A DNA stretch of 49,037 bases from Anaerolineales bacterium (GCA_027053005.1 JALUEF010000073.1:1-49037), one strand, 5' to 3'. Counted from the stretch's first letter, positions 16,111 through 46,329 are shown. A program made the numbers and translations. Notes: a model not told the origin generated them from the letters alone.

Positions 16111-16479
16111 TTACCCCTCGTCTGGGTCGCGGATTTCTCCGTCGATCACTTCGGGCGGGGGCGATGCATCATCGTCCGGGGGCAGCAGCCCTAACGCCCG
16201 CTTGTGTTCAGCAACGACGTGAGGCGGGCTGAGTTCGATGAATAGATTGACGCCCAGCCAGAGAATGGCGGCGTCGTCCAGCGCACCGATGACGGGCAAG
16301 GCCATGCCGGGCGCCAGGTCCAGGGGCCAGGCCAGGTACGCCAGCGAGCCAATGGGCAAAATCTTCAACAAAGCCGGAACGCGCGCGTCTTGAAACAGCC
16401 GCCACACCAGGCGGATGCGCTGCGCCAGTTCACGAATGGCGCTGATATTTTGCGGGGGTTGGAATGGTTGTTGAGACAT
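16111..16479 (-). CDS. DUF1232 (YkvA-like) membrane protein
   Basis: RBS AGGAGGAA. 'LAYLAWPLDLAPGMALPVIGALDDAAILWLG' is the DUF1232 core. Confidence 0.8.
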   Translation of the reverse strand: MSQQPFQPPQNISAIRELAQRIRLVWRLFQDARVPALLKILPIGSLAYLAWPLDLAPGMALPVIGALDDAAILWLGVNLFIELSPPHVVAEHKRALGLLPPDDDASPPPEVIDGEIRDPDEG

Positions 16480-16664
16480 GTTCCTCCTGCCATGATTATA
16501 TAAGCATTTTTGTTTTTACACGGCACCCCAAAGACGGGGAACACGGCGTTTTCCTGCGATCGCCGGGCGTTGCTTATCAGGTCGTTCACGCAACCATGCT
16601 TTTTTGTGCACTCCCCGAAGACGCGGAGAAAACGCCCCGCACCTTTGGCCTGCCCCGGCGGGGG

Positions 16665-17084
16665 TCAGCTTGTTTCCCAGGCATTGAGCAAACGCGGGAT
16701 TTCAGCAGCGATTTGGTCGCGCACCTGGCGGAAGGCCTCCAGCACCTCGGCTTCGGCGCCCTCCGCTGCGGCAGGATCAGGATACCCGCTGTGCAGACGT
16801 TCCCCTTTTCCCAGCCATACCGGACAAGTCTCGGCGGCGTGATCGCAGACGGTGATGACGACATCAAAATCCATTCCCCGAAAGACATCCGCGTGTTTGG
16901 GCGCCCCTTGATGAAAGAGGCCGATCTCTCGCAGAACCTGTATGGTCAGCGGGTGCACACGGTCAGCGGGCGCAGTTCCCGCGCTAAAGGCCTGCCAGCG
17001 TCCGCCCATCTCGTGGTTGACAATGGCCTCTGCCATTTGCGAGCGACAGGAATTGCCGGTACAGAGAAACAAGACCTTATACAT
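16665..17084 (-). CDS. arsC: arsenate reductase, thioredoxin-coupled LMW-PTPase type
   Basis: 'MYKVLFLCTGNSCRSQMAE' (CX5R P-loop), 'VITVCD' and 'ETCPVW'. 139 aa from ATG 17084. Confidence 0.85.
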   Translation of the reverse strand: MYKVLFLCTGNSCRSQMAEAIVNHEMGGRWQAFSAGTAPADRVHPLTIQVLREIGLFHQGAPKHADVFRGMDFDVVITVCDHAAETCPVWLGKGERLHSGYPDPAAAEGAEAEVLEAFRQVRDQIAAEIPRLLNAWETS

Positions 17085-17140
17085 TGCCTGGGCAACCTCC
17101 TTGCCAACCATTGTATCAGAGACGGGGCGCATTTTTTCAA

Positions 17141-17288
17141 CCTGAGTTTCGGATAAGAAGGCTTTATCCAAACTGTCATTGCGAGCCGCCGTAGGCGGCG
17201 TGGCAATCCCCTGGATGGCTGGGCGGGAGATGGCTTCGGGCGCTCTGCACCCTCGCCATGACGCTGCTCATCGTTATCCGCAATTCAG
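17141..17288 (+). repeat. MITE-like nested palindromic repeat, family A, copy 1
   Basis: Terminal inverted repeats 'cctgagtttcggataag...cgttatccgcaattcag'. Internal long hairpin 'gtcattgcgag...ctcgccatgac'. Homologous to 31601-31749 and, inverted, to 48869-49017. Confidence 0.8.
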
Positions 17289-17397
17289 TTTTTTAATGTG
17301 CCGTTATCTTAAAACCTGAATAGAGAAGCAAGGCTACGTGCTATAATCACACGCGTACTTATCTTGCCCCCCTCTCCAATTCACGAGAAAGATCCCC

Positions 17398-20300
17398 ATG
17401 TCTTTTGCCCACTTGCACGTCCACACCATCTATTCGCTGCTGGATGGATACAGCCATATCGATCGCTTGATGCAGCGCGTCAAAGAGATGAACATGCCGG
17501 CGGTCGCGGTGACCGATCACGGCACCATGTATGGCGTCATCGAGTTCTACCGCGCCGCTCGCAACGCCGGGGTGAAACCGATCATCGGCATCGAAACGTA
17601 TATGGCGGCCCGCGGCATGCAAGACCGCGACCCGCGCCTGGATAAAAAATCCACGCACTTGCTTTTGTTGGCCGAAAACGAAGTCGGATACAAAAACCTG
17701 TTGAAAATCGCTTCGGCGGCCCAGACGGACGGCTTTTATTACTATCCGCGCATCGATCACGACTTTTTGGCCGAACACGCCGAAGGATTGATCTGTACCA
17801 GCGGCTGTCTGGGCGCGGAAATCCCGCAGGCCTTGCTGAAGGAAGACCCGGAAGAAGCCGTCCGGCGGATGAACTGGTATTACGATGTCTTTGGGCCGGA
17901 CCGTTTTTATGTGGAGCTGCAGCACCACAACATCGCCGAAATCACCGAAGTCAACCGGCAACTGGTGGAACTGGGCGCGCGCTATTCCGCGAAGTTCGTC
18001 GCCACCAATGATGTCCATTACATTGACCCGGAGGACGCCTATTTCCAGGATGTGATGCTCGCCATCCAGACCGGCAAGCCGCTGTCCGCTGCCGACCGTT
18101 TCCGCATGGAAGGCTCGGATTATTATTTGCGTTCGCCGGAGGAGATGAGGCAACTTTTTGCGGAAGTGCCCGGCGCCATCAGCAACACGCTGGAAATCGC
18201 CGAGCGTTGCAACGTGGAATTCCGCTTTGCGGATGAGACCCACGAATACCACCTGCCCCATTTCCCGGTGCCGGAAGGCGAAACGGCCCAAACCTATCTG
18301 CGCAAGCTGTGCGAGGCGGGCGCGCGCAAGCGCTACGGGGCACGGGCGACCAGCCAGGAAGTGGTCGATCGCCTGAACTATGAACTGGACGTCATCCACA
18401 CCATGGGGTTCGACGCCTACTTCCTGATTGTGTGGGACCTGTGCCGCTACTCGCGTGAAAAAGGCATCTGGTATAACGCCCGTGGTTCTGCGGCCGGTTC
18501 GATTGTGGCCTATACGCTGGGCATTACCCTGGTGGACCCGCTCGACAAGGGCCTGCTCTTCGAACGCTTCCTCAATCCCGGGCGCGTTTCCATGCCCGAT
18601 ATCGACCTGGATTTCCCGGACGACCGGCGCGAAGAATTACTGGCCTATACCGCCCAAAAATACGGCTCCGACAAGGTAGCGCAGATCATCACCTTCGGCA
18701 CCCTGGGCTCCAAGGCCGCGGTGCGCGATGTGGGCCGGGTGATGGAGGTGGACCTCGATACGGTCAACCGCATCAGCAAATTGATTCCGCAAAAAAACAA
18801 CAAGCCGGTTTCGCTGAAAAAAGCCCTGGAGGAATCCGCCGAGTTGCGCGAATGGTATGAACGAGACCCCAGGGTAAAAAAGCTGATCGATACCGCCTCC
18901 CGCCTGGAAGGGGTGGTCCGCAACCCGGGGACGCACGCCGCCGGCGTGGTGGTCGGCGACAAGCCGCTGGTGGAATACCTTCCTTTGCACCGGCCCACCA
19001 ACCAGAACGCCGAAAGCGCCATTCCCACCGTCACCCAGTTCGAGATGAGCATCCTCGATTCGCTGGGGATGCTCAAGGTCGATTTCCTCGGCCTGTCTAC
19101 GCTGACGGTCATGTCCCGCGCCTGCGATTTAATCAAGGAGCGGCATGGCGTGGAATACAACCTGGCGAACATCCCCCACGACGACCCGGCCACCTATGAA
19201 TTGCTTGGCCGCGGCCAGACGGCGGGCGTCTTCCAGCTGGAAGGCAACGGGATGACCCGTTACCTGGTGGAAATGCAGCCCAAAACCTGGGACAATGTGA
19301 TCGCCATGGTGGCGCTTTACCGACCGGGGCCGATGGAATTCATCCCGCAATATATTCGCCGTATGCGGGGGGAGGAGGAGGTCACCTACAAGCACCCCTG
19401 GCTGGAGGAGATCTTCGCCGAAACATACGGCATTCCGGTCTATCAGGAACAGATCATGCAGGCCGCGGTCAAACTGGCGGGGTATAACCGTTCCGAGGCC
19501 GACAACCTGCGCAAGGCGATTGCCAAGAAAAAGAAGAAACAACTGATCAAGCACCGCGCCAAGTTCATCGAAGGCGCCGTAAAAAACGGTATTCCGCGCC
19601 ACACGGCGGAAGAGATCTTCGATGAATGGGAAGAATTCGCCCGCTACGGTTTCAACAAATCTCATGCGGCGGTCTATGGCCTGATGGCCGTGCAAACGGC
19701 CTTTCTCAAGGCGCACTATCCGGCGGAGTTCATGGCCGCGCTGATGTCGGTATTTAAATCGGACACCAGCAAGATCACAACCTACATCAATGAAAGCCGC
19801 AAGATGGGGCTGGAGGTCTTGCCGCCGGATGTCAACGTCAGCCGCTACGATTTCAGCATCGAAGACTTGCCCGGTGGCCGGACGGCCATTCGCTACGGGT
19901 TGGGGGCGGTGAAGACCGTCGGCTACGGCCCGGTAGAGGCCATCATCAAGCCGCGCGACGCCGACGGCCCCTTTGCCAACCTGGATGATTTCATTCGCCG
20001 GGTGGACCTGCGCGCCGTGGGCAAGCGCGCGCTGGAAGCCTTGATCAAGGTAGGCGCGCTGGATGCCTTTGGCAGCCGGGCGGGTTTGTTGTCGATCCTC
20101 GATCAGATCACCGGACAGAGCGCATCCTATTTCCGCGCCAGCGAGGCCGGGCAGCTCAGCCTCTTTGGCGAGGCGACCTCGGTACAGTTCAACGCCATCC
20201 ATGTGCCGGAGATCGAAACCGACCGCCGCGAACAGCTCAACTGGGAACGGGAATTGCTGGGGATCTTTGTCAGCGATCACCCGCTACGCCCTTATGCCGA

Positions 20301-31959: not shown

Positions 31960-32160
31960 GTCAGCAGGGGCGCGAAATGAATTTCGCGCTACAGGGTGCG
32001 GCCCAGCGACCGCTCAACGAGCACGTAGCCCATTGGTCAACCTGCGTGAAGATCAAAAATTTTTTTGTTTTTAAGGCAAGGAAGCACAAGAATGCACAGC
32101 GCGGCAAAAATATCGTATACTATCCCTGCTTTTTATCCTGCCAATCCAAGGAGTACGCCC

Positions 32161-33813
32161 ATGTCTGGACCTCGTGTTGTTCACCCGCCCCGCGGGACGC
32201 AACTGCACTGCAAGAACTGGCTGCTCGAAGCCCCCTTCCGCATGATTCAGCACAACCTGGACCCGGAAGTAGCCGGCGACCCCGACAATCTCATCGTCTA
32301 TGGCGGGCGCGGCAAGGCGGCCCGCAACTGGGAAGCCTTCGACGCCATTCTCGACACCCTGCAAAAAATGGACGTCGATGACACCCTGCTCATCCAGTCC
32401 GGCAAGCCCGTGGCCGTCTTCAAAACCCACCCCGATGCCCCGCGCGTGCTGATCGCCAACTCCAACCTCGTTCCCAAGTGGGCCACCTGGGAACACTTCG
32501 ACGAACTGGACGCCAAGGGCCTGATGATGTACGGCCAGATGACCGCCGGTTCGTGGATTTACATCGGTACCCAGGGCATTTTGCAAGGCACCTACGAGAC
32601 CCTGGCCTCCCTTGCCACGCAGCAGGGCTGGCCCTCGCTGAAGGGCAAGTTCGTGCTCACCGCCGGCCTGGGCGAGATGGGCGGCGCGCAACCCCTGGCC
32701 ATCGCCATGAACGAAGGCGTCGGCCTGGTGGTAGAAATCGATCCTCACCGCATCCAGCGCCGCCTGGAGACTGCTTACCTGGACGTGGTGGCTGACGACC
32801 TGGACGACGCGCTGCGGCGCGTGAACGAAGCCCTGTCCAAAGGCGAAGGGCTGTCCATCGGCCTGCTGGGCAACGCCGCCGACGTGCTGCCCGAACTCGT
32901 CCGCCGCGGCATCACCCCCGACGTGGTCACCGACCAGACCAGCGCCCACGACCCGCTCTACTACTACCCGCGTGGCATGTCCTTCGCAGAAGCCGTGGCC
33001 TTGCGCCAGAGCGACCCCGAAGCCTTCAAGGCCAAAGCCATGGAATCCATGGCCCGCCACGTGGAAGCCATGTTGACCTTCCAGCAGCGCGGCGCGATCG
33101 TCTTCGACTACGGCAACAACCTGCGCCAGATGGCCTACGATGCCGGCGTGAAAAACGCCTTCGACTACCCCGGCTTTGTGCCGGCCTACATCCGCCCCCT
33201 CTTCTGCGAAGGCAAAGGCCCCTTCCGCTGGGTGGCGCTCTCCGGTGACCCGCAAGACATCTACCGCACCGATGAAGCCATCATGGAACTCTTCCCCGAA
33301 GACCACCACCTGGTGCGCTGGATCAAAATGGCGCAGAAGCGCGTCCAATTCCAGGGGCTGCCTTCGCGCATCTGCTGGCTGGGTTACGGCGACCGCGCCA
33401 AAGCCGGCCTGAAGTTCAACGAACTGGTGGCCAGCGGCGAAGTCAGCGCGCCGATCGCCATCGGGCGCGACCACCTGGACGCCGGTTCGGTCGCCAGCCC
33501 CAACCGCGAGACCGAAGCCATGAAAGACGGCTCCGATGCCGTCTCCGACTGGCCGATCCTGAACGCGCTCATCAACGCCGTCGGCGGAGCCACCTGGGTC
33601 TCGTTCCACCACGGCGGCGGCGTAGGGATGGGCTACAGCCAGCACGCCGGCATGGTCATCGTGGCCGATGGCACCCCCGAAGCGGCGGCCCGCTTGCAGC
33701 GCGTGCTGACCACCGACCCGGGCATGGGCGTCGTCCGCCATGCCGACGCCGGCTACGATCTGGCCTGCGAAACCGCCAAGACCAAAGGCATCTGGATGCC
33801 GATGCTCAAATAG
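32161..33813 (+). CDS. hutU: urocanate hydratase
   Basis: ATG 32161 follows AAGGAG. 'HNLDPEVA', '[14 protein letters not shown]', '[26 protein letters not shown]' and '[12 protein letters not shown]'. Length is 550 aa. Confidence 0.93.
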
Positions 33814-33820
33814 TGCTGCC

Positions 33821-33852
33821 ATGCCGTGACACTTGGTCACGGCATTTTTCAT
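33821..33852 (+). terminator. intrinsic terminator after hutU
   Basis: Perfect 10-bp stem atgccgtgac(33821-30)/gtcacggcat(33836-45), 5-nt loop, then 'ttttcatctttt'. Confidence 0.75.
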
Positions 33853-33874
33853 CTTTTCACACGGAGAAGAAGCA

Positions 33875-34747
33875 ATGAGTGAAACCCGCAAGAAGATCAC
33901 CCTGCCCTATCTTTTCAAAAAGGCCGCCGAGGGCGAGCCGATCTCCTGGCTGACCTGCTACGACTACCCCACCGCCTACCTGCAAGAACAGGCCGGCGTG
34001 GAGATGATCCTGGTCGGCGACAGCCTGGGGATGACCATGCTCGGCTACGACAGCACCCTGCCCGTGACGATGAACGACATGATCCGGCACGCTTCCGCCG
34101 TGCGCCGCGGCGCACCGACTGCCTTCGTGGTGGGCGATATGCCCTACATGTCCTACCAGCCGAGCAACGAACTGGCCGTCCAAAACGCCGGGCGTTTCAT
34201 GGCCGAAGCCGGCTGCGACGCCATCAAACTGGAAGGCGGCGCGGCCATGGCCCCGCGCATCAAGGCCATCGTCGAGGCCGGCATCCCGGCCATCGGGCAT
34301 TTGGGCCTCACGCCGCAATCCGCCTCGGCGCTGGGCGGTTTCCGACTGCAAGGCAAATCAGCTGCTCTGGCCAAAAAGATCATCGACGACGCCAAAGCCC
34401 TGGAAGAAGCCGGCGCCTTTGCCATCCTGCTGGAACTCGTCCCCGACCGCCTGTGCCAGATCATCACCGAACGCGCCGAAAACTGCCTGATCTTCTCGCT
34501 CGGCTCCGGACCGCACGCCCACGGGCAGCTGCTGATTTACCACGATATGTTCGGCCTGTACCCCAAATTCAAACCGCGCATGGCCAAAGTCTATGGCAAC
34601 GCCGGCGAAATCATCCAACAGGGGCTGGCCAGTTACGTGGAAGAGGTCAAGGGACGCGTCTTCCCGGCGCCGGAAAATTACTTCGGCATGAAAGACGAAG
34701 AATACGAACAATTGCTTCAACTGCTGGAGGAAGAAGACAATGACTGA
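33875..34747 (+). CDS. panB: 3-methyl-2-oxobutanoate hydroxymethyltransferase
   Basis: ATG 33875 follows GGAGAAG. 'LTCYDYPTA', 'ILVGDSLGMTMLGYDSTLPVTM', 'GHLGLTPQS' and 'HGQLLIYHDMFG'. Confidence 0.9.
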   Translation: MSETRKKITLPYLFKKAAEGEPISWLTCYDYPTAYLQEQAGVEMILVGDSLGMTMLGYDSTLPVTMNDMIRHASAVRRGAPTAFVVGDMPYMSYQPSNELAVQNAGRFMAEAGCDAIKLEGGAAMAPRIKAIVEAGIPAIGHLGLTPQSASALGGFRLQGKSAALAKKIIDDAKALEEAGAFAILLELVPDRLCQIITERAENCLIFSLGSGPHAHGQLLIYHDMFGLYPKFKPRMAKVYGNAGEIIQQGLASYVEEVKGRVFPAPENYFGMKDEEYEQLLQLLEEEDND

Positions 34748-36011
34748 AGACCTGCGCGCCCGCCTGCGCATCACGCCCGAGAGCCTGGCAGCCGTCAATG
34801 AGATTTTCCTGAACCCCGATACGCGGGTGGTCAACGCCCTGCTGGACGTGGTTGCCCGTTATGGCACGCCGGAAGAAATCAACGCCCGCGCCAACGAAGC
34901 CAGCCGCCTGGAAAACCTGCTCGAGAAGGTGCGGCAGACCCGCCCCGAATACCTGGACGACCTGAACTGGCTGATGGAACAACGCGATCAAGGCGCTTTC
35001 ATCGGCGTGGGCGATTACCGCCGCCAGCTGCTGGGCGAGAAAGCCGACCAGATGACCTTCGCCGACGACTACGCCGTTACGCTGGAAGTCTCGGCCCTGC
35101 AATACTTCCCCTGGATCCGCCCGATGTGTGAACGCGCCCTGGCCGAAGGCAGCCTGGTTCCCGGGCGTTTGATCCGCGTGCGCAAGATGAAAGAACAGGA
35201 AGCCGACGGCGACCTGCCCGCCGTGGCCGCCGCCATGCAGATCATCGGCGCTTCCTGGGTGGAGACGCTCGACACCAAAGGCACCGACGGCTCCAACATC
35301 CACCTGGGCGGCCCGGAGACCATCACCGGCTACTTCGGCGGCGTCGGCCAGCCCGATGAGCACGCCCTGCAATGGGTGGACGAATTTCTGTATTACTACA
35401 CCGAATACGGTGTGCGCGAGGTGCTCAACATCAACCCGGGCACGGTGCTGCTGGGCTACATGCTCTACAAACTGGGCGTGGATATCCGCTTCAAGATCTC
35501 GGTCTTCATGGGCAACGACAACCCCTACGCTGCCCTGTGGACGCTGATCGGCGCCAAGCTCTTCTCACGCGAAGACGGCAGCACCCCGCTGATCGGCTTC
35601 AACTGGTCCAACTCGGTGCACAACTCCACCCTGGAGATCACCGACCAGGTGCGGGCCATGCTGGGTTTTACCGACAAAATTCGCTTCGAACACCACATCA
35701 CCGAGACGTGGAAGAGCATCGTCATTCAGCCCTACGACCGGCGCGCCGAACTGATGCAACTGGCCGACCACGTGGCCAACATCAGCGCCAAACACGAAGG
35801 CGGACTGCCAGAAGTGGAAGCCAAACGCGAACACCCCTCCGACATCCTCGACTACTTCCGCGACAAGGAGGAGGTCATCGCCTCGGGCGACTGGGAGGCC
35901 ATGCAGCAAAACTTCCTGGACAAGGTGGCCGCCGCCAACAGCACCGCCCGTATGCTAACCGAAAACGGGCTTTCTTTCATCGCTGCCCGCCACCTGCACC
36001 ACCGCGGGTAA
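34740..36011 (+). CDS. conserved-looking 423-aa soluble protein of unrecognised family, translationally coupled to panB
   Basis: ATG 34740 overlaps the panB stop by 8 nt. The long ORF has normal composition and no TM segments or motifs I can name ('SNIHLGGPETITGYFGG', 'FMGNDNPYAALW', 'RFEHHITETW'). Confidence 0.7.
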   Translation: MTEDLRARLRITPESLAAVNEIFLNPDTRVVNALLDVVARYGTPEEINARANEASRLENLLEKVRQTRPEYLDDLNWLMEQRDQGAFIGVGDYRRQLLGEKADQMTFADDYAVTLEVSALQYFPWIRPMCERALAEGSLVPGRLIRVRKMKEQEADGDLPAVAAAMQIIGASWVETLDTKGTDGSNIHLGGPETITGYFGGVGQPDEHALQWVDEFLYYYTEYGVREVLNINPGTVLLGYMLYKLGVDIRFKISVFMGNDNPYAALWTLIGAKLFSREDGSTPLIGFNWSNSVHNSTLEITDQVRAMLGFTDKIRFEHHITETWKSIVIQPYDRRAELMQLADHVANISAKHEGGLPEVEAKREHPSDILDYFRDKEEVIASGDWEAMQQNFLDKVAAANSTARMLTENGLSFIAARHLHHRG

Positions 36012-37858: not shown

Positions 37859-38941
37859 TCAGGGGATGTATTCGCCGGGGGAACCAAAACGCACCAATTG
37901 CCAGTTGCGGATGTAATCCGGCTGCGTGGGATCGATGCGCTCAACGCTGAAGCATTCCGCCGGGATGAGCGGCAATCCGTCGGCGCCGTCGTCGTACACG
38001 CTTTTCAGGTATTTGGAGCCAATCCGCGGTGTGCCGTAAGTGGAGATCGGCATGCCTTGCATCGCCGTCCGCCCGCCAACATAGAGCACAACGACATCGT
38101 GGTAGAGGGCATCGGCCCGCATCCCATAGAAATGGTCGCCCAGGCGGATGTCTTCCGCAACGGTCAGGATCACCGTCCCTGGCGGGAAGTTGTAAGGCAT
38201 CCGGTAGGGGCGCGGCCCGTTCATGTACTGCGGCGGCAAGACAACGGCCACCCCTTGCGGCGGGATCTCGGTGCTGTTGAAGATCAGCCCTTCGCCGAAG
38301 GTCAAATCCGGGTTGCGCTGCGACCAGGCCACCAGGCGCTGCCCACGATAATCGGAGTTGGGGCTGTAAATCCACATGTCGCTCACGTCCACCGGCACAT
38401 CGCCCATGTTGTACAGCTCGATGTACTGGTTATAGCGCTTGAAATCATCGCCGCCGCACACGTTGATCATCACCTCGCTGATGATGACCTGCCCCAATTG
38501 GCCGGTGGGAGAGGCCACTGCCGTGGGAGATGCGGAGACAGCGGTCGGCGCAACAATGCGCACTTCGGAAACCGGCGTGGGCGTTGCTGCCGGTGCGACC
38601 ACCTCGCACTGCCGCTCAAACGTCCAGCGCTCATCATCCCGCGAGACAGTCACCCGCACGGTCACCATCCCTGGCTCGGGCGGCGCGGTAAATTCGGCTG
38701 TAACCCCCTCTTGCAGGCTCACCAACGCCCCAGCCGGGACGGAATTCCATTCGTATTTCAGGTTGCCCGGCGGCTGCGCCCCCTGCAAGCTAAAGGCAAT
38801 CGTCTCGCCCGGCTGCAGTTCGCATTCGTCCGGAAGGATTTTAAACGAGGGTTTGGGTGGGGGGGGCGTAAAAAGCCCGCAGCCGCTCAACACCAGGGCC
38901 GCCAGCGCAATGAAAGCGAGGATGCGTACCTTATTGTCCAT
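37859..38941 (-). CDS. lipoprotein with N-terminal Ig-like domain and C-terminal lamin-tail-domain (LTD)
   Basis: Lipobox 'LVLSGC'. PT-rich linker. 'VIISEVMINVCGGDDFKRYNQYIELYNMGDVPVDVSDMWI' is an LTD signature. Confidence 0.75.
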   Translation of the reverse strand: MDNKVRILAFIALAALVLSGCGLFTPPPPKPSFKILPDECELQPGETIAFSLQGAQPPGNLKYEWNSVPAGALVSLQEGVTAEFTAPPEPGMVTVRVTVSRDDERWTFERQCEVVAPAATPTPVSEVRIVAPTAVSASPTAVASPTGQLGQVIISEVMINVCGGDDFKRYNQYIELYNMGDVPVDVSDMWIYSPNSDYRGQRLVAWSQRNPDLTFGEGLIFNSTEIPPQGVAVVLPPQYMNGPRPYRMPYNFPPGTVILTVAEDIRLGDHFYGMRADALYHDVVVLYVGGRTAMQGMPISTYGTPRIGSKYLKSVYDDGADGLPLIPAECFSVERIDPTQPDYIRNWQLVRFGSPGEYIP

Positions 38942-39647
38942 TGTCTTCTACCTGTATGATCAGAGGGAAAAACGCTTTTTGAGAACAAAACTGTTGGCTG
39001 GCAACCAACGTCAAGACGCCTTGCCCGGGATGGCTGGCGGTGGACAGGGTGACGTTGCACCCCCGACTGACGTTGATGGAATCGAAGGCGTTGCCAGCCT
39101 GTTGCCATTCGCAGGTGATGGTCTTGCCTTCTTCCACTGGCGCAGCGATGATGGTGATCGACTGCCCGGAGGAGATGGTCACCGTATCGCCAGTGAAATA
39201 AGAAACATCGTTGATCGAGAACTTCACCGCCCCCGGCGCCTGGCAATACGGCAGCAAAAAGAAGCTCAACAGGACGACAACCCCAACGACGGCAAAGTGA
39301 AACCCCAGGGGCAAGGCCCGAAAATAAGCGCGCAACTTGGGGTTGGACAGAATTTTATCCAGCCCAACGTTCAGAAACCTGACCGAGGTGATGTCCACCA
39401 GGCGGCCAGCGGCAAACACCGCGCTGGTCAACCCCAGGGAGACCACCAGCATCGCCAATCGCGGGTATATGCTGCCGTTGATCAAATCGACGATGGGTTT
39501 CAACCGCTCCGGAATGGCCTGGAAGAACATGGCCATGACGATCACAGCCCAGGCCAGCAAATACATCCCCAATCCACGCGCCAGGTCGCCCCAGGAAAAA
39601 ACGGGGTCTTGAGGAGATGGCTTGGGTTGGTCATTTTGTTTGTTCAT
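38931..39647 (-). CDS. membrane protein (about 4 TM) with C-terminal Ig-like domain
   Basis: RBS AGGAG. TM helices, then 'AVKFSINDVSYFTGDTVTISSGQSITIIAAPVEEGKTITCEWQQAG...'. Overlaps the downstream LTD gene by 11 nt. Confidence 0.6.
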   Translation of the reverse strand: MNKQNDQPKPSPQDPVFSWGDLARGLGMYLLAWAVIVMAMFFQAIPERLKPIVDLINGSIYPRLAMLVVSLGLTSAVFAAGRLVDITSVRFLNVGLDKILSNPKLRAYFRALPLGFHFAVVGVVVLLSFFLLPYCQAPGAVKFSINDVSYFTGDTVTISSGQSITIIAAPVEEGKTITCEWQQAGNAFDSINVSRGCNVTLSTASHPGQGVLTLVASQQFCSQKAFFPLIIQVEDNGQ

Positions 39648-39740: not shown

Positions 39741-39778
39741 CGCAAAACGGCAACGAGCGCCCAAAGCAGGGCGCTCGC
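39741..39778 (-). terminator. intrinsic terminator after ctaB
   Basis: Perfect 9-bp stem (39754-62 / 39769-77). On the minus strand it is followed by 'ttgccgttttgc'. Confidence 0.55.
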
Positions 39779-39814
39779 CTGAAAAACCGCCTTTGCCGCG
39801 ATTGGCCGGCTCGT

Positions 39815-40669
39815 TTACAGAGAGAGGAGCAACATGGTGCTGAACATATACAGCGAGGCATATTTGAACAGCCCGAAGTTCACCCGCTCCGAGGGGCGCA
39901 CCAGGCTGAGCACCGCCAGCACCAGCAATCCCAGGGAAAGCAAAGCAATGAGCTGCAAATACCCCCAGGCCGTTCCCAGTTGCCAGGCGATGCCGCCGAT
40001 GACTGCCGCGGCCAGCACACTGGCAACGGCGATGATCCAGCGGGTCGTTGTCTCGCCATAGGTTGAAGGGAAGGTCGGCACGCCGGCCCGACTGTAGTCA
40101 ACGCCATAGCGCAAGCTGAAGGTGAGGATGTGCGTCGGGATCCACAATAAGATCGACAGAGCCAGCAACAACCCGACTGCATCGATCGCTCCCACGCCCA
40201 GCACGCGCCCCGCCAGGATCGGCATCCCGCCGGAAACACCGCCCCAGACGATCGACCAGCAGGTGCGACGCTTCAGCCAGATGGTGTAAACCACCACATC
40301 GAAGAACAAACCGGCAAAGACGACCAAGCCATACAGCGGATCCATCCATACCGCCAGGCCAACGCCTAACAGCGAGAGGACCAGCCCCAGGCGCAGAGCC
40401 TCATTTGGCGGCAGTTCTCCACTGGGCAGGGGACGCCGCGAGGTGCGCGCCATGCAGGCGTCGATGTCCCGGTCGTACCACATATTGAGCACCGTGCTGC
40501 CACTGATCGCCAGCAGCAGGCTGAGGCTCAACCCCAGCAGCGTGCGCCAGTGCGTCACCGGGCAGCGGGCGGTAAAGTATCCGGCCAGGCCGGTCAACAA
40601 CAACAACGCCGTTTGCATACTTTTGATCAGCGGCCAATAAAGCCGGATTTTCTTGCGCAAGACTTGCAT
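39815..40669 (-). CDS. ctaB: protoheme IX farnesyltransferase (heme O synthase)
   Basis: ATG 40669 follows GAGGAGGAAGG. UbiA motif 'NMWYDRDIDACMARTSRRPLPSG'. About 8-9 TM. Confidence 0.9.
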   Translation of the reverse strand: MQVLRKKIRLYWPLIKSMQTALLLLTGLAGYFTARCPVTHWRTLLGLSLSLLLAISGSTVLNMWYDRDIDACMARTSRRPLPSGELPPNEALRLGLVLSLLGVGLAVWMDPLYGLVVFAGLFFDVVVYTIWLKRRTCWSIVWGGVSGGMPILAGRVLGVGAIDAVGLLLALSILLWIPTHILTFSLRYGVDYSRAGVPTFPSTYGETTTRWIIAVASVLAAAVIGGIAWQLGTAWGYLQLIALLSLGLLVLAVLSLVRPSERVNFGLFKYASLYMFSTMLLLSL

Positions 40670-40697
40670 GGCGACCTTCCTCCTCTTTTTGGCGGCT

Positions 40698-41687
40698 TCA
40701 GGGTTGAGCATCACGCGCGCAACGGAAGCCGACATCCGGCGCGTAATACTCCGGCCCGGCCATGTTGAACTTCCAGACGCGCAGGTCCACTTCATACGAA
40801 TAGTAGCTGCCACCGCGCAAGTTGCGGTAATGCATGTCGGCGAAATCGTCTCCTATCCATTGCCAGACATTGCCAGCCATATCATACAGGCCGTAAGGGC
40901 TGGGAGAATCAAGCGTCTCATACCCGTCGTAGGTTCGCCCATTGTAAAAACCGACCGGCGTCGTATTCCCCAGTTTGCCGAACATGCGCTCGAAAAGGTC
41001 GAAGGACGAATAGTAGTTGGCGTTGTTGGGCGCGATCTCATCTCCCCAGGGGAAGGGACGGCCATGCCCTTCTTCATCGATTTCCACACCGCGGGCCGCC
41101 TTCTCCCATTCGGCATCCAGCGGCAGCCGCCAACCGTAAAACTCGCAGTAGGCATTGGCGCCAAACCAAGAAACCATCGTCATCGGGTGGTTGGCATACT
41201 CAGGGATCGGCGCAAAGGTCTCGCCGTCGAAGGTCAGGCGCAAGGGCGCCTCCTCCAGCGGAATGTATAGTTTCACCCCGGGTTCAATCCGCATTTCGTG
41301 ATCGTACCCATCAAAGGGGTCGCCGGGATAATACCCGCCCACGCCTTCCACCGTGCGGAGGGCCACATACTCATCGTCTTCCACGTTGAAGCCGGAATCG
41401 ACCTCAATGGCCCCGATGGTCAAAACGCCAGCGGCCAGCGCCTCGTTCAAAAAGCGGGCATATTGCGCCACCGTCACATCGGTGACCATGATCTCATAAT
41501 CGTAAGGCAGGTCGCGGAGGGCATCGTGCTGCCCGTAGGGGAAGGGGCCGGCCGGGACCAGCGCCCAGGCCTCCGGGTCTATGCCCGTATCAATGTACGG
41601 CGGCGTTATGGCGCCCACTTCCGGGGCGGAAGAACAACCGCTCAACACCAGCAGCGCAACCAGCATCGCCAGAAACAGACGTTTCAT
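40698..41687 (-). CDS. FGE/SUMF1-domain (formylglycine-generating-enzyme family) lipoprotein
   Basis: Lipobox 'LLVLSGC'. 'PMTMVSWFGANAYCEFYGWRLPLDAEWEKAARG', 'GNVWQWIGDDF', 'LRGGSYY' and 'GFRCARD'. The ATG overlaps the upstream stop (ATGA). Confidence 0.85.
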   Translation of the reverse strand: MKRLFLAMLVALLVLSGCSSAPEVGAITPPYIDTGIDPEAWALVPAGPFPYGQHDALRDLPYDYEIMVTDVTVAQYARFLNEALAAGVLTIGAIEVDSGFNVEDDEYVALRTVEGVGGYYPGDPFDGYDHEMRIEPGVKLYIPLEEAPLRLTFDGETFAPIPEYANHPMTMVSWFGANAYCEFYGWRLPLDAEWEKAARGVEIDEEGHGRPFPWGDEIAPNNANYYSSFDLFERMFGKLGNTTPVGFYNGRTYDGYETLDSPSPYGLYDMAGNVWQWIGDDFADMHYRNLRGGSYYSYEVDLRVWKFNMAGPEYYAPDVGFRCARDAQP

Positions 41688-43225
41688 TTTTCGGCCTCCT
41701 TGAGGATGGCCTGAATTTCTTCCAGGCGCTGTTTTTGATCTTCCAGTTCGGCTTGCAACGACGCTTTTTGTTCCAGCGTCAATTCCTGGCTCCAGGCGCC
41801 CTGTTCCAGGAACAAGTCCACCAATCGCCAAATCATGACCAGGGCCAACACAATGAGCACGGTGGCCAGGCCAAAATCCATCAGCAGCATGGTCCAGTTG
41901 ACCACATTCTGCTGCGCCGCAGCGCTGACGAACAGCCGCTTCATCGAGAAGACCGTCGCCGAGGCAAAGGCCAGGTCGGAACAAAGGATGATCGTCCAGC
42001 CAACGATCTGCCGTTTACGTCCCTTCAGGCCGGCCAGGTCGAGGTAATAGAACAGGATAATGGTGGCGATCAGCGCCGAGAGGATGTGCCAGTGCCCGGT
42101 CAGGGTGATGCGTTCTTCGCGCAGCGGCCACACCCGAAAGATATCCTCCAATTTGACCGCCATGAAAATCCCCACGCCGCTGACGGTGAAATTCATGAAC
42201 ACCATTTGCCAGCCAGAGCCAAACTTGAGCGGATCGTGGAAGAGCGCGCGCAGCTTCTGCCCCAGCGTGGGGTTGGCAATGCCTTCCTCGGCCAGCCGTT
42301 CACGAATGAGCACACCCCAAGAGTAGATGACATAAAAGAGCGCCGCCAGCATTACAAAGACGGACCCCACATAAACGATGGCATGTGCCCATTCCAGCCA
42401 GACGACCGACAAAGCGCCAGCCGTCATGGTGATGGTGCCGCTGATCATCAGCCACATGGCCCAGGTGTGCAGCCGGCCTTTGAAATCCAGCCAGCGGCCC
42501 ACAATCAGGGTGATGCCCACCGCCAGCAAGGCAACCATGATGTGCAAGTGCCCGATGACCGCCTTTTGCAAAGCCGTCTTGTGCGGAATGCGGATCAGGT
42601 CTTCTGCCAGGAAGGTTTCATGGCCGTTCGACCAATACGAACCCGTGACCGCGCCCCAGGTGGCAGAAACCAGCAAGGCAATGGCCATGGTGAAAAAGGC
42701 CGCGCGCTCCAGATCTACCCCGCTGCGGGTGTGTGCATAGGGAGAATTCGCCGGCAGGCGATATTCCTTGCGCCAGGGCCACAAGGCCAGCGCCAACAAA
42801 ATGCCAGCGAAAAAGATCAGCGTCAACCCCACCAGGTAGAGACCATGAAAGGCAAAATTGCGTCCAAAATAGGCAAACCCCAGGCCAAAGAACATGGTGG
42901 TGATGTAACCCACAGTGATGATGCCGTTGATGGTCAGGCGTTCGCGCTGCTTCATCTTCACCAGGTGGGTGGTAAAGTAAACTTCAATGGCAACGACGGC
43001 CATCGCAATGGTGTGATACAGCATGATAATGCGGCCTTCGCGCTCCGCCTGCACCAAACGCATGTTCAACAGGCGGACGGTGATATCGCGCACACCCCAT
43101 TCGACCATTGGGCCGGACAGCGTCCCCCAGATGGCCGTCACCAGCGAGATCAAGGCAATTGCAACCAGGGTCAGGCCGCGCGTGGAACCAAAAAGGTATT
43201 GCCAGCGTTTTTTCAAAGCGTCCAT
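41684..43225 (-). CDS. about 12-TM histidine-rich integral membrane protein with C-terminal coiled coil; family not recognised (HCO/NnrS-like His pattern)
   Basis: ATG 43225 lies 6 nt after GGAG. Twelve hydrophobic segments by eye. TM-embedded His in 'LYHTIAM', 'FAFHGLYL', 'IGHLHIMVA', 'RLHTWAM', 'WAHAIVY' and 'TGHWHILSA'. Tail 'LEQKASLQAELEDQKQRLEEIQAILKEAEK'. Confidence 0.7.
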   Translation of the reverse strand: MDALKKRWQYLFGSTRGLTLVAIALISLVTAIWGTLSGPMVEWGVRDITVRLLNMRLVQAEREGRIIMLYHTIAMAVVAIEVYFTTHLVKMKQRERLTINGIITVGYITTMFFGLGFAYFGRNFAFHGLYLVGLTLIFFAGILLALALWPWRKEYRLPANSPYAHTRSGVDLERAAFFTMAIALLVSATWGAVTGSYWSNGHETFLAEDLIRIPHKTALQKAVIGHLHIMVALLAVGITLIVGRWLDFKGRLHTWAMWLMISGTITMTAGALSVVWLEWAHAIVYVGSVFVMLAALFYVIYSWGVLIRERLAEEGIANPTLGQKLRALFHDPLKFGSGWQMVFMNFTVSGVGIFMAVKLEDIFRVWPLREERITLTGHWHILSALIATIILFYYLDLAGLKGRKRQIVGWTIILCSDLAFASATVFSMKRLFVSAAAQQNVVNWTMLLMDFGLATVLIVLALVMIWRLVDLFLEQGAWSQELTLEQKASLQAELEDQKQRLEEIQAILKEAEK

Positions 43226-43292
43226 CGTCAACTCCTGTCACCGGACAGGGGGGCGCGCCGCAGCGCGCCGCCCCGTCAGGACACACACATGG

Positions 43293-43916
43293 TCAGGCGT
43301 CCAGCTCCCGGGTGAAACCGACAGCAAAAGCCAGCGTCATCAAAAACAGCAAGGGGGCCAGGATCATCAAAATGAACTCGCCCGTGAAAATGCCGAACAA
43401 CGGTCGGCCGGCTTTGTAAAAGGCCAGGGCAATGCCGCCGATGCCAATCAGCCCGCCGCCGACGCCCACCAGGCCAAAGCCTTTGGGCGCGCTCTTTTTC
43501 ACCAGGCAGAGATACAACGGCAAGCCAAAAATGATCAGCCCCGCCACCCCGTGGAAGAGGGGCACGGCCACGCTTTTGAAGGCCAGCCCGTTGATGCTCG
43601 AAACCGCGATCGCCAGCAAGCCAAAGAGCGCAAACCAGGCGTAATACTTTTTATAGGCCCGCAGGTACTGGTTCATCAGCCCCAGGGAGATGCCCAGCGG
43701 GATAAGCGTTGCCACGGTGAGCACATACGGCGAGTCCAACAACCCCCAGCCGCCAAAGATTAGCAGGACGCCAGAGACCAGCAGCACAACGAAACCCAGG
43801 GCATAGTACGCATCGTACAACCCCTGTTCGCGGCGGTAACGCCCGATGAAACGCCATGCCAGGTAGGCCGCAAGCAATCCAGTCAGCAACAGGACAACTT
43901 GATCGAAGAGTTTCAT
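43293..43916 (-). CDS. hypothetical 207-aa polytopic membrane protein
   Basis: ATG 43916 lies 6 nt after AAGGAG. About six hydrophobic helices and a Gly-rich stretch 'GLVGVGGGLIGIGGIALA'. Confidence 0.65.
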   Translation of the reverse strand: MKLFDQVVLLLTGLLAAYLAWRFIGRYRREQGLYDAYYALGFVVLLVSGVLLIFGGWGLLDSPYVLTVATLIPLGISLGLMNQYLRAYKKYYAWFALFGLLAIAVSSINGLAFKSVAVPLFHGVAGLIIFGLPLYLCLVKKSAPKGFGLVGVGGGLIGIGGIALAFYKAGRPLFGIFTGEFILMILAPLLFLMTLAFAVGFTRELDA

Positions 43917-43957
43917 TTTTCGCTCCTTACTAAAAGTGGGTACACAAGAGGCCTTAT

Positions 43958-43973
43958 TGTGCATTCGTGCACA
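43958..43973. promoter_or_regulatory. perfect CRP-format palindrome TGTGC-N6-GCACA (candidate Crp-family operator or 5'-UTR hairpin)
   Basis: 'attgtgcattcgtgcacaat' has perfect 8-bp arms (43956-43975). It lies 42-57 nt upstream of ATG 43916 in the AT-rich gap. Confidence 0.45.
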
Positions 43974-44035
43974 ATACCTGGGATCAATATAGCATTATTT
44001 TTCTACAAAGTCCATAAACTTTGTAAGGTCAACAA

Positions 44036-44051
44036 TGTGAATATTGTCACG
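44036..44051. promoter_or_regulatory. CRP-consensus-like site TGTGA-N6-TCACG
   Basis: 'TGTGAatattgTCACg' matches 9 of the 10 half-site positions of TGTGA-N6-TCACA. It is 78 bp from the palindrome at 43958-43973, in the same intergenic gap. Confidence 0.45.
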
Positions 44052-44116
44052 TTCATCGGGCAAAAAAGGGGAGGCAACGCCCGCTGAGGAGCGTAGCAGG
44101 CGCTGCCGCGCCGTTT

Positions 44117-44935
44117 TCAATCCTCTCCTGCGGTCAACATGCGGTTCACGCCGGGCAGCAAGAGCACCACCAGCAAAATCGTGCTTAGAATAGGCGCCGG
44201 CAAGAACATGGAGAAGCGCTGCACCTCGGCCACATTGTGGATACCCATCGGATAACCGCCGAGCATCGACATGACCGCGGCAAAAATGCCCACGGGCAAA
44301 GCCCAGCGACGGCGTTTGATGGCCCCAAAGATAAACATGGCCCAGGCCGCCGCCCCCCACCAGTTGATCTGCTGCGAGATGATGTACATCCCGTTCCAAA
44401 AAGCGCGATCGCCGGCGACGAACTGCGTCGGCCGCTGGAAGGTCGTCTGGAATTTGGAAATCGGCGCCACACCATTGATGAAGGTCAGCACATAGGCCAT
44501 GCCGGCGACAAAGGTCAGCGAAACGATGCCCTTTTCCACGTTGCCGATCCACAACATGCCAAACCAGACCACCGCCGCCAGGAGGAAGACCCACAAAGTC
44601 GGCGTCGGCAGTCCGCTATCCGCCGCCGGAATCATAGGGAAGAAACCAGCCAGCAGCAGAATCGTCCCGGCCACGGCCCCCCAAAACCAGGCCCAATCTT
44701 GTTTTTTCCAAAACCCCCAAAACACAGCCGCCGACAGCGCGCCCGCTGCTGTGCCCAACCAACCCAACACGGCATACACCAGGCGGACGGTGTTGCTTTC
44801 CTCCCATTCGCCCGCGTTGAAGTGCGTGTGAATGACCGTGTTGTAGGTATCGGCCAAGAAATAGAACGTCAGCAGCCCGGCTACCAGGCCGACAAAGGCC
44901 AGAAACATCCCGATCGTGTACTTCTTATTATCCAT
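44117..44935 (-). CDS. hypothetical 272-aa polytopic membrane protein
   Basis: ATG 44935 lies 8 nt after AAGGAG. About 7-8 hydrophobic helices, Trp-rich ('FWGFWKKQDWAWFWG'). No family recognised. Confidence 0.65.
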   Translation of the reverse strand: MDNKKYTIGMFLAFVGLVAGLLTFYFLADTYNTVIHTHFNAGEWEESNTVRLVYAVLGWLGTAAGALSAAVFWGFWKKQDWAWFWGAVAGTILLLAGFFPMIPAADSGLPTPTLWVFLLAAVVWFGMLWIGNVEKGIVSLTFVAGMAYVLTFINGVAPISKFQTTFQRPTQFVAGDRAFWNGMYIISQQINWWGAAAWAMFIFGAIKRRRWALPVGIFAAVMSMLGGYPMGIHNVAEVQRFSMFLPAPILSTILLVVLLLPGVNRMLTAGED

Positions 44936-44991
44936 GGTGTGCACTCCTTACTAAAGGGATTCAGGGATATTGCGGAAACTTGCCCTCCCCT

Positions 44992-45522
44992 TTACGGGAC
45001 GGGCGTTCCCAAAGCGGTCAGCAGACCGCTCAAAAACAAAACCAGCACCACCAACCAGGCGTTGATTTGCAACAATCGCTCACTCAGACGCTGGCGGGCA
45101 GCCCGCATCTGGGCCATTTTTTGCGGGTTGGCGCCCGCTGGCCCTTGTTTCCCGGCCGGGGGTTTGCCCAGAACCAGGCTGCGGTACAACGACATCCCAA
45201 TCATGACGATCACAACCAGGTGTTTCAACGTCAACACTGTCGAATAAGGTGTGCCAAAAGAAAACAGGCGGACGAAATTCGGGTTTCGCTGCGCCATCAA
45301 CATACCGGTAATCACCAGACCGGCCATGCTGTAATAAACGATCCGGCCGTGTCGTTGTTGGAACGCGCGCATCAGCCGCTGGAATTCTTCTCCGCGGCCC
45401 AAAACCTCGTTTGCCACCGGTCGCAAAGAGAACCAGACCACAAGCATCCCGCCCATCCACAAGGCGGTAAACAAAGTGTGCAAAAAACGAATTGAAGCAA
45501 AGCCAAAAGTCTGTCCAGACAT
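44992..45522 (-). CDS. CopD/HemJ-superfamily-like small membrane protein
   Basis: ATG 45522 follows GAAGGAG. TM1 'IRFLHTLFTALWMGGMLVV' has the H-x6-W-x-GG pattern of CopD/HemJ/DUF4149-type proteins. Four TM. Confidence 0.55.
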   Translation of the reverse strand: MSGQTFGFASIRFLHTLFTALWMGGMLVVWFSLRPVANEVLGRGEEFQRLMRAFQQRHGRIVYYSMAGLVITGMLMAQRNPNFVRLFSFGTPYSTVLTLKHLVVIVMIGMSLYRSLVLGKPPAGKQGPAGANPQKMAQMRAARQRLSERLLQINAWLVVLVLFLSGLLTALGTPVP

Positions 45523-45553
45523 AGATACTCCTTCCAGATGCATCCAGTAATTC

Positions 45554-45594
45554 AAAAGGCAGCCGGGCTGTCTTCAGTATGCAGCCCGACTGCC
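45554..45594 (-). terminator. intrinsic terminator after the Crp-family gene
   Basis: 13-bp stem (45558-70 / 45582-94) with one G-U pair, 10-11-nt loop, U-tract on the minus strand (plus-strand aaaa 45554-57). Confidence 0.65.
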
Positions 45595-45621
45595 TTTTTG
45601 TCCACGACTTTTGTCGCACAT

Positions 45622-45637
45622 TGTGATTTTTTACACT
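45622..45637. promoter_or_regulatory. weaker CRP-format site TGTGA-N6-ACACT
   Basis: 'TGTGAttttttACACt' keeps the GTG-N8-CAC core. It overlaps the crp stop codon, about 100 nt upstream of ATG 45522. Confidence 0.3.
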
Positions 45638-46329
45638 TCCCCTCTGCGTGCCAAAGCCTCCCGATCCAGGATGAAGATGCCGCTCCGTTCAACTTTGAGC
45701 AGCCCTTCGTTTTCCAGTGTGCGCAAGGCACGGCTGAGCACATCGCGCACTGTGCCCAGGCGCACCGCCATCTCGTCGAAGGTGGTCCAGGGTTGCCGTG
45801 GAATCAACCATCTGCCATTCTGTTCTTCGGCATAACGCAACAAGGTGCGGGCAACGCGGGCTTCTACCTTGCAGAGGCTCAGGTCTTCGATCAAATCCAC
45901 ATAATACAACACCCGCTCTGCCATATGCCGGGCGATGACCATCGTCAACGCCGCCGAATCTTGCGACAGGCGCAAAATCGTCTCTGCCGGCAGCGCCCAG
46001 GCAGCCACCAATTCCAGCGCGGTGACGGTTGCCGGATACGGGACGCCGGAGAAGACGGCCACATCGCCGAACAATTCGCCGGCGTGAAGGAAGCGCAACG
46101 CCTGTTCCCGCCCCCGGCAAGAAACGCGCGTGGCTTTCACCCATCCTTGCGCCAGCAAAAAGACCGCTTCCGCCGGTTCTCCCTCCAAATACACCACCTG
46201 ACCAGCCCGAAAACGCCGCAAATGTGCCGCCCGAATCAGCGCTTCTTGCACATCACCGGGCAAATCGCTAAAGTGAGGCACCTGGGCCAGCAAGCGGCGC
46301 AAACCTGTTTCTGTATCATAAGCGTCCAT
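45631..46329 (-). CDS. Crp/Fnr-family transcriptional regulator (no N-terminal Cys cluster)
   Basis: A cNMP-binding-like beta-roll ('FRAGQVVYLEGEPAEAVFLLAQGWVK...GELFG') plus a C-terminal HTH 'FDEMAVRLGTVRDVLSRALRTLENEGLL'. The ATG overlaps the radA stop (TAATG). Confidence 0.85.
   Translation of the reverse strand: MDAYDTETGLRRLLAQVPHFSDLPGDVQEALIRAAHLRRFRAGQVVYLEGEPAEAVFLLAQGWVKATRVSCRGREQALRFLHAGELFGDVAVFSGVPYPATVTALELVAAWALPAETILRLSQDSAALTMVIARHMAERVLYYVDLIEDLSLCKVEARVARTLLRYAEEQNGRWLIPRQPWTTFDEMAVRLGTVRDVLSRALRTLENEGLLKVERSGIFILDREALARRGEV

Follow-up and report, generated by a model that had tools for sequence, protein, structure and literature searches.

The window analysed here is a stretch of 49,037 nt from an Anaerolineales bacterium (GCA_027053005.1 JALUEF010000073.1:1-49037), and our subject is a cluster of seven genes at positions 39815-46329 in which a heme O synthase gene lies among genes for largely unannotated membrane proteins. 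An initial annotation of the sequence had drawn these seven genes, all on the minus strand, and each of them is borne out with the boundaries listed in Table 1. They code for a Crp-family regulator, a CopD-like protein, two polytopic proteins named p272 and p207 after their lengths, a protein with 12 transmembrane helices (p513), an FGE-like lipoprotein and the heme O synthase CtaB. Scans of Pfam and NCBIfam returned no match for p272, p207 and p513, for p513 no sequence of the PDB was matched either, and the start of the FGE-like gene overlaps the stop codon of the p513 gene by 4 nt. The rest of the window (DnaE, PanB, RadA, a histidine kinase, etc.) is ordinary chromosome, in which neither respiratory genes nor a shift in composition was found, and Rfam gave no match between 39000 and 47000. 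We discuss the locus as encoding an unannotated and very divergent, heme-O-dependent relative of the heme-copper oxidoreductases (HCOs), i.e., an oxidase- or nitric oxide (NO) reductase-like complex, a reading to which we assign about even chances.

Table 1. Genes and regulatory features of the p513 locus, in the direction of transcription (positions within the window)
Feature	Position	Strand	Basis and remarks
Crp-family transcription factor	45631..46329	-	Pfam cNMP_binding 8.8e-23 and HTH_Crp_2 4.7e-12
Intrinsic terminator after crp	45554..45594	-	13-bp stem with one G-U pair, 11-nt loop, TTTT
CopD-like protein with 4 transmembrane helices, 176 aa	44992..45522	-	PF05425, 35.0 bits (cut-off 32.1)
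p272, polytopic membrane protein, 272 aa	44117..44935	-	no Pfam or NCBIfam family
CRP-type operator CGTGACAATATTCACA	44036..44051	-	centred ~62-65 nt before the predicted start of transcription; read from sequence
Putative sigma-70-like promoter TGGACT-17-TATATT, extended -10 TG	43986..44014	-	consensus match only
Second palindrome TTGTGCACGAATGCACAA	43957..43974	-	between promoter and ribosome-binding site
p207, protein with 7 transmembrane helices, 207 aa	43293..43916	-	no Pfam or NCBIfam family; helices from AlphaFold
p513, protein with 12 transmembrane helices, 513 aa	41684..43225	-	fold like HCO subunit I (AlphaFold and Foldseek)
FGE/SUMF-fold lipoprotein, 329 aa	40698..41687	-	PF03781 8.6e-35; lipobox Cys18
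Heme O synthase ctaB (CtaB/CyoE)	39815..40669	-	TIGR01473, 224.5 bits (curated equivalog cut-off 210.3)
Terminator-like hairpin after ctaB	39744..39779	-	8-bp GC-rich stem, then GTTTTG; weak

The interpretation starts from the fold of p513. Its AlphaFold model, based on a 35-sequence alignment, has a predicted local distance difference test (pLDDT) score of 77.6 and a predicted TM-score of 0.82, and comprises the 12 transmembrane helices followed by a long C-terminal cytoplasmic helix (residues 477-512). In a Foldseek comparison with the PDB, the top matches were two chains of the cbb3 oxidase subunit CcoN (3mk7; E 3.7e-3 and 3.8e-3, probability 1.00), with TM-scores of 0.51-0.57 over 507-515 columns, followed in third place by subunit I of the ba3 oxidase (4gp8_A; E 5.5e-2, probability 1.00, TM-scores 0.52/0.51). 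The other matches with raised TM-scores were also of the HCO type, namely COX1 of Perkinsus (0.44/0.48) and qNOR (0.32/0.25); transporter classes (MATE, MurJ, PPase, complex I) did not exceed 0.26. A structural comparison with HCO subunit I had been among the checks proposed in the initial annotation, and for p513 it turned out positive. The accompanying statement that no oxidase subunit is recognisable at the locus holds at the level of sequence but fails at the level of fold, and the heme O synthase can no longer be said to stand there instead of cox genes, given that p513 itself has the fold of an oxidase catalytic subunit.

p513 is built from three homologous four-helix units. Helices 5-8 align with helices 9-12 (hhalign 97.2%, E 3.8e-11), pairing the segment LAEDLIR…GH226LH228 with LEDIFRV…GH378WH380, and helices 1-4 align with helices 9-12 (75.5%, E 2.4e-5); controls with reversed sequences and unrelated families reached at most 3.4%. 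We considered a sequence-detectable triplication to be unique to p513 and rejected this idea, since CcoN, represented by a nine-sequence C-family alignment built from plasmid ccoN genes, displays the same triplication in weaker form (hhalign 64% and 50%). The CcoN repeats stand in the register of p513, with the helix-6 His aligned to the first His of the helix-10 HxH, and both signals agree with the pseudo-threefold arrangement of helices seen in oxidase structures. A sequence link between the p513 repeats and the thirds of CcoN was not found. Also rejected, on the basis of hhalign comparisons, was a kinship of the four-helix unit with the CopD-like protein, p207, p272 or a recurrent neighbouring membrane protein family termed c7.

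The C-terminal helix of p513 (window positions ~41687-41797) is a separate feature, being conserved and highly charged in the core family and missing from shorter relatives. It could form a coiled coil for dimerisation, and it may account for the OAD_gamma (PF04277) match and the IMG name of some homologues; the name "OAD gamma subunit", which one p513 homologue bears in IMG, is almost certainly spurious.

The initial annotation had called the 12-helix protein His-rich. With 13 His in 513 residues its composition is not rich, though 7-8 of these residues are invariant. Among full-length relatives down to 22% identity, H71, H127, H226, H228, H281 and H378 do not vary, nor do E208 and R364, and H380 is at least 90% conserved. 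In the model, H71 is located on helix 2, H127 at the start of helix 4, H226 and H228 on helix 6, H281 at the start of helix 8 (the 7/8 junction), and H378 and H380 on helix 10; judged by loop charge, all conserved His lie toward the outer face. Subunit I of the HCOs carries its ligands as a His on helix 2, a His on helix 6, an HH pair at the end of helix 7 and an HxH motif on helix 10. The corresponding positions are 71/226/281/378,380 in p513, 117/266/316,317/404,406 in FixN of Sinorhizobium meliloti, and 284/333,334/419,421 in CyoB of Escherichia coli, whose helix-2 heme ligand we take to be H106; for ba3 we assume 72/233/282,283/384,386. According to model and alignment, H71 and H378-W-H380 of p513, as candidate heme ligands, lie at a depth and spacing that match those of the HCO ligands. 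H127, also invariant, is an additional His and corresponds by symmetry to H281. Among the Tyr residues of p513 only Y70 and Y119 are conserved, and a cross-linkable Tyr was not found: the position four residues after the helix-6 His is Met230, and helices 6-8 hold no invariant Tyr. Given that p513 lacks the active-site Tyr of O2 reducers, a two-electron reduction of a small molecule is the most likely chemistry. Loss of this Tyr together with an altered metal-B site has been used by Murali et al. to predict reduction of NO rather than O2 (PMC11214002).

p513 is no isolated curiosity of one genome. A collection of 5.8 billion proteins holds more than 3,200 homologues, the best 120 of which measure 511-524 aa, are mostly 67-73% identical to p513 (the closest 90%), and are all unnamed or "hypothetical". 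When 1.84 billion cluster representatives were searched with a profile, only 342 clusters of the family were retrieved, many of them fragments. Relatives occur in at least 252 GTDB species, based on a scan of one genome per species, with most carriers being metagenome-assembled genomes (MAGs) of Anaerolineales, Caldilineales and Ardenticatenaceae, and some belonging to Calditrichota. An earlier description of the family, or of a module made up of an HCO, an FGE and CtaB, was not found in the searchable literature.

For the analysis of gene neighbourhoods, 80 loci from other genomes were kept, 56 of which extend at least 4.5 kb downstream and were used for counting CtaB and p207. An FGE-like gene follows p513 on the same strand in 80/80 loci, the order being p513, FGE, CtaB; among the 56 loci with sufficient flank, the FGE-like gene is present in all, ctaB in 55 and a p207-family gene in 51, while the c7 membrane protein is encoded in 32. 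Because the same gene order is found in all 80 loci, the clustering goes far beyond chance, which answers the call in the initial annotation for a test of neighbourhood conservation. The conserved core consists of p513 and CtaB, with or without FGE and p207; CopD, p272 and Crp form a variable periphery. The initial view of the gene set as one system is therefore to be narrowed, with p513, CtaB, FGE and p207 linked, but CopD (5/80 loci), p272 and the regulator peripheral. Homologues of cyoA, cyoB and cyoC were found neither in the window nor in the 80 loci. Several individual neighbourhoods are worth recording. Locus L080, from an uncultured Caldithrix sp., carries two tandem p513-FGE-CtaB modules (8001-17500, starting at 8001 and 14064), whose p513 copies are ~70% and 67% identical to that of the window. 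In L070 (105-1277) and ten other loci, a protein with two tandem FmdE-like domains (weak PF02663 match, 0.0036) is encoded ~4.4 kb upstream of p513. Finally, a multiheme cytochrome c-like gene with faint Pfam matches lies 3 kb downstream of a module of 60% identity (L093, 12244-13185, minus strand).

The adjacency of p513 and CtaB recurs at four levels of divergence, corresponding to ~70, 60, 44 and 26% identity of p513. The first level is the core counted above. The 60% subfamily, exemplified by L093 and present on many contigs, has the order Crp, p513, FGE, CtaB; in the 44% relative (L095), p513 and CtaB overlap and are followed by a p272-family gene; and in the 26% relative from Hodarchaeales (L087), p207 and p513 precede a UbiA-type gene with heme o synthase as best NCBIfam match (204 bits). 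The 44% and 26% subfamilies keep p513 and CtaB but have no FGE. The shorter relatives (413-451 aa) stand alone. One of these (415 aa), from an apparently anaerobic organism, has a rubrerythrin gene beside it (L089, 7359-7928, minus strand), which hints at a link to oxidative stress.

Such tight linkage to CtaB, which is sometimes translationally coupled to p513, could also mean that p513 handles heme O rather than using it, i.e., that it receives, stores, modifies or inserts the heme as a chaperone or as a functional counterpart of heme A synthase, on behalf of a client whose gene lies elsewhere. CtaA/Cox15 binds heme through His pairs, and the paired His in the four-helix units of p513 recall this arrangement; the missing linkage of an electron-donor subunit would also fit. 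However, the fold of p513 matches the catalytic subunit and not CtaA, seven invariant His plus partner subunits exceed the needs of a chaperone, and no canonical oxidase that might serve as client lies near the module in the 80 loci. In addition, a MAG of Brevefilum fermentans holds the full module (L071), and the published genome of this species is described as lacking cytochrome oxidase and electron transport complexes (PMC5481317); MAG and published genome are different assemblies, so that this occurrence of the module without an oxidase is suggestive only. On balance, we regard a role in heme O handling as unlikely.

The same linkage speaks against viewing p513 as a non-heme metal protein, in which the His would bind Cu or Fe and which would work with CopD as a transporter or membrane metallo-oxidase, CtaB being linked for some other reason. 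HxH motifs are typical of copper sites, the window does contain a CopD-like gene, and there are relatives in anaerobic archaea and other anaerobes that lack an adjacent CtaB. Against this, CopD is found in 5/80 loci only, the CtaB adjacency recurs independently at all four divergence levels, and a helix-2 His combined with a helix-10 HxH is the heme-ligand signature of the HCOs. We consider this explanation to be of low probability.

The first of the partner proteins to be considered is p207. Its AlphaFold model shows seven helices at a pLDDT of 93.2, for which Foldseek returned only generic matches to seven-helix proteins (G-protein-coupled receptors, rhodopsins) and none to HCO subunit III. 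There are 107 p207 copies in 68 loci, one of them directly upstream of p513 in 33/67 loci; the window holds the upstream copy only. A p207 homologue also directly precedes the p513 relatives of Infirmifilum lucidum (6e-31), presumably an anaerobic hyperthermophile, and of Hodarchaeales (1.7e-33), so that the partnership with p513 appears, from these sequence matches, to be ancient. p207 is thus a seven-helix partner and probably a subunit of the complex.

The FGE-like protein has SUMF2 as its best sequence match in the PDB (1y4j, 4.1e-18), followed by SUMF1; we take SUMF2 to be an inactive FGE paralogue. In human FGE, the copper-binding catalytic Cys pair is, as we assume, C336/C341. This pair was not found in the FGE-like protein, where GGSYMCHRSY(C)YRYR of SUMF1 is aligned to GGSYY---SYEVDLR, and among its Cys residues only C18 of the lipobox and C323 reach a conservation of at least 95% across 83 orthologues. 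The argument of the initial annotation that FGE is a copper enzyme consequently does not carry over to this lipoprotein, which would rather be a structural subunit on the outer membrane face. Within p513, segments 197-205 and 355-368 have pLDDT values below 50 and are invariant inside, but not outside, the FGE-containing lineage; they may well represent a partner-binding surface.

Of the more variable neighbours, the CopD-like protein has a marginal Pfam match (Table 1) and stays far below the cut-off of the NCBIfam CopD equivalog (29 against 195). p272 is homologous to a neighbour family designated c12 (hhalign 98%), and one or the other is encoded upstream of p513 in 28/49 loci. A NapH/MauN-type iron-sulfur membrane protein, absent from the window, is found in 16/49 loci and may either donate electrons or act as a copper reductase similar to CcoG; together with the CopD-like proteins it gives the surroundings of the module a copper and electron-transfer theme. 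A ferredoxin of this NapH/MauN type is encoded upstream of p513 on the same strand in L022 (5492-6328; Fer4_5 5e-17, TIGR02163 2.5e-23) and in 21 other loci.

These partners bring up another possibility, namely that p513 is a transmembrane electron conduit leading from quinol or NapH via two hemes to an FGE-fold lipoprotein that performs the actual chemistry, in the style of MsrQ/MsrP. The 4-nt overlap of the two genes suggests 1:1 coupling, the two invariant outer loops of low pLDDT would be places for such a partner to dock, and the NapH-like gene would supply the electrons. But the lipoprotein lacks the FGE Cys pair and is most similar to inactive SUMF2, it is missing from the 44% and 26% subfamilies in which p513 and CtaB persist, and we know of no role for heme O in simple electron conduits. 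Altogether, this makes a conduit improbable.

Concerning regulation, 24/49 loci have a Crp gene no more than 6 kb upstream, and in two other subfamilies such a gene is directly adjacent. The regulator of the window has a recognition helix of the form R-D-x-x-x-R and only two Cys, hence no FNR-type cluster. Both palindromes that had been pointed out in the AT-rich gap upstream of p207 are present, as the CRP-format box CGTGACAATATTCACA and as TTGTGCACGAATGCACAA, which could be a second operator or a hairpin in the 5′ untranslated region; a repeat search found no long inverted repeats in this gap. Allowing at most one mismatch, 34/77 loci have a TGTGA-N6-TCACA box in the 300 bp that precede the p207/p513 unit, the background rate being 0.03 per 300 bp, and the box is enriched ~14-fold upstream of the operon. 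In the window by itself the box does not reach significance (of 100 shuffles, 17 gave at least the 2 matches that are present), so that its significance derives from the cross-locus comparison only. Judged by its half-sites, the operator is CRP-type and not of the FNR/NnrR type, for which we assume the FNR consensus TTGAT-N4-ATCAA. Hairpins can be read in the sequence after crp and, in weaker form, after ctaB, where the initial annotation had placed terminators; an automatic scan missed both because of its limits on the loop (the one after crp exceeds 8 nt) or the tail.

The initial annotation had further compared the locus to the NnrR/NnrS/NirV system, which would make it an NO-stress system unrelated to oxidases. 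A Crp-family regulator, a 12-helix His-bearing protein and an FGE-fold protein do occur together here, and the absent active-site Tyr suits NO better than O2 chemistry by the criterion cited above (PMC11214002). Yet the likeness to NnrS finds no backing in Pfam, as neither p513 (searched to E 0.1) nor 10 divergent relatives (to E 1) match PF05940; the analogy to NnrR is not supported because of the CRP-type half-sites, the R-D-x-x-x-R helix and the lack of an FNR cysteine cluster; nirK and nor genes are not recurrent nearby; and p513 has an HCO-like fold. An NO-stress system of this kind thus appears quite unlikely to us. What stands of the earlier interpretation is its broader idea of a heme/copper membrane system, in the sense of a conserved, unannotated set of membrane proteins under a Crp-family regulator, connected with heme O and, in all likelihood, with one more metal.

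Several points weigh against placing p513 among the HCOs. The Foldseek E-values are modest and the root-mean-square deviations amount to 7-8 Å. Pfam COX1 (PF00115) matches neither p513 (E to 0.1) nor 10 divergent relatives (E to 1); phmmer and two profile searches (A1, A2) of PDB sequences with p513 found no HCO; and hhalign comparisons of p513 with CyoB, FixN and the nine-sequence C-family alignment gave at most 1.6%. The relation, as modelled, is thus one of fold only and invisible to sequence methods, and the putative ligand roles are read from helix position and spacing. At the putative metal-B site, p513 has H226-L-H228 on helix 6 and the single H281 instead of an HH pair, and residues i and i+2 of a helix face different directions; as three His are present, a variant site is possible. 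Moreover, the recurrent neighbours in the 80 loci include neither a cupredoxin nor a cytochrome c family, i.e., no linked subunit for electron entry; denitrification genes, nirK and nor included, do not recur near the loci; and some distant relatives, one of them in Infirmifilum lucidum, stand alone without an adjacent CtaB.

Drawing on the observed fold match, internal repeats, invariant His, gene linkage and conserved operator, we infer cofactors, subunit contacts, electron donor, substrate and chemistry of the HCO-like complex as follows. p513 would be the catalytic subunit. If the ligands are assigned as in subunit I of the HCOs, a low-spin heme would be held by H71 on helix 2 and H380 on helix 10, a high-spin heme by H378, and a third metal, either Cu or Fe, by H226/H228 together with H281, with all of these putative sites near the outer membrane face. 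The co-transcribed heme O synthase would supply the farnesylated heme for the high-spin site. p207 and the lipid-anchored, presumably catalytically dead FGE-fold protein would serve as structural subunits, the latter capping the outer face in place of a cupredoxin or cytochrome c subunit II. Electrons would most likely come directly from menaquinol and, in about one third of the loci, may pass via the NapH-like iron-sulfur membrane protein. The operon would be switched on by the CRP-type regulator acting at the TGTGA-N6-TCACA box upstream of the promoter. As regards the reaction itself, reduction or detoxification of NO is our first guess and scavenging of O2 at low levels the second.

Aerobic respiration depends on HCOs, and these enzymes also account for most of the N2O produced biologically. 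In a recent census, 12 families are distinguished, all of them sequence-recognisable (PMC11214002). Adding one more would push the superfamily well past its known limits, with a metal-site layout and partner subunits unlike those of known members, and the addition would be a family that goes unseen by Pfam and NCBIfam, despite having members in 252 or more GTDB species and among metagenomic proteins numbering in the thousands. It would explain why a heme O synthase is found in fermentative Anaerolineae said to be oxidase-free, and, since these organisms are abundant in digesters, sediments and anammox reactors, it would add a candidate NO or O2 sink in these habitats. How the archaea most closely related to eukaryotes deal with oxygen is under debate, and the relatives found in Hodarchaeales are relevant to this question.

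A more far-reaching thought, and a distinctly unlikely one, is that the p513 family branched off early from the common ancestor of the HCOs and has survived to the present. The family, which would use heme O, is distributed over mostly anaerobic Bacteria as well as Archaea, including the Asgard Hodarchaeales and Thermoproteota. The strong triplication, with His on helices 2, 6 and 10 and at the starts of helices 4 and 8, implies that the third "pore", left unoccupied in modern oxidases, may contain a cofactor in p513. If true, the family would offer a direct handle on what the scaffold did before aerobic respiration.

A few further observations concern the window outside the cluster. Downstream of ctaB (37859-39647, minus strand), two overlapping genes code for a membrane protein of 238 aa and a lipoprotein of 360 aa, the latter weakly matching the Lamin-tail domain. 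Counterparts occur in none of the 80 loci, most of which carry at this place the c7 membrane protein and another paralogue of p207 instead. Long open reading frames without Pfam match (423-609 aa) are located at 34740-36011, 12667-14403 and 14464-16101 on the plus strand and at 32071-33900 on the minus strand; some may be real unknown genes, others artefacts of high G+C content. A gene of the penicillin-amidase family is contained in the window (5881-8442, 851 bits), and another one lies directly upstream of a distant p513 relative (L090, 3425-5833), which is probably a coincidence.

When the locus is set beside known systems, the likeness to NnrS comprises the 12 transmembrane helices, the conserved His and the control by a Crp-family regulator, while the family match and the type of operator differ. 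NirK-NirV and SUMF2-type proteins share with the lipoprotein described here an FGE-sulfatase fold without the Cys pair, encoded beside a redox metalloenzyme gene; unlike these, the lipoprotein is translationally coupled to a 12-helix protein, and as the function of NirV is itself unknown, the analogy explains little. Closer are the NO-reducing HCO families, i.e., cNOR, qNOR, eNOR, sNOR, gNOR and nNOR (PMC11214002), which share with p513 the lack of an active-site Tyr and a changed metal-B site, and which may likewise use quinol directly. Those families, however, are sequence-recognisable kin of the B and C families with CuA, cupredoxin or cytochrome c partners, neither of which applies to p513, and p513 does not have their Glu four residues after the helix-6 His (Met230). 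In size, the p513 family with its 252 GTDB species is comparable to gNOR and sNOR, which count 156 and 344 species (PMC11214002). From cbb3 and ba3 oxidases, p513 departs in showing no detectable sequence similarity, in having a helix-6 HxH and a single His before helix 8 where these have HH on helix 7, in the additional invariant His where helix 4 begins, in the absence of a cross-linkable Tyr, and in having a seven-helix protein and an FGE-fold lipoprotein as partners instead of a cupredoxin or cytochrome c subunit. Nevertheless, CcoN of cbb3 and subunit I of ba3 are its best structural matches, with the same 12-helix fold and, at similar spacing, a helix-2 His, a helix-6 GH and a helix-10 GHxH, and CcoN also has the three four-helix repeats. 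At the level of the operon, there is a parallel in cyoABCDE of E. coli, where a heme O synthase gene is likewise encoded alongside and supplies the farnesylated heme.

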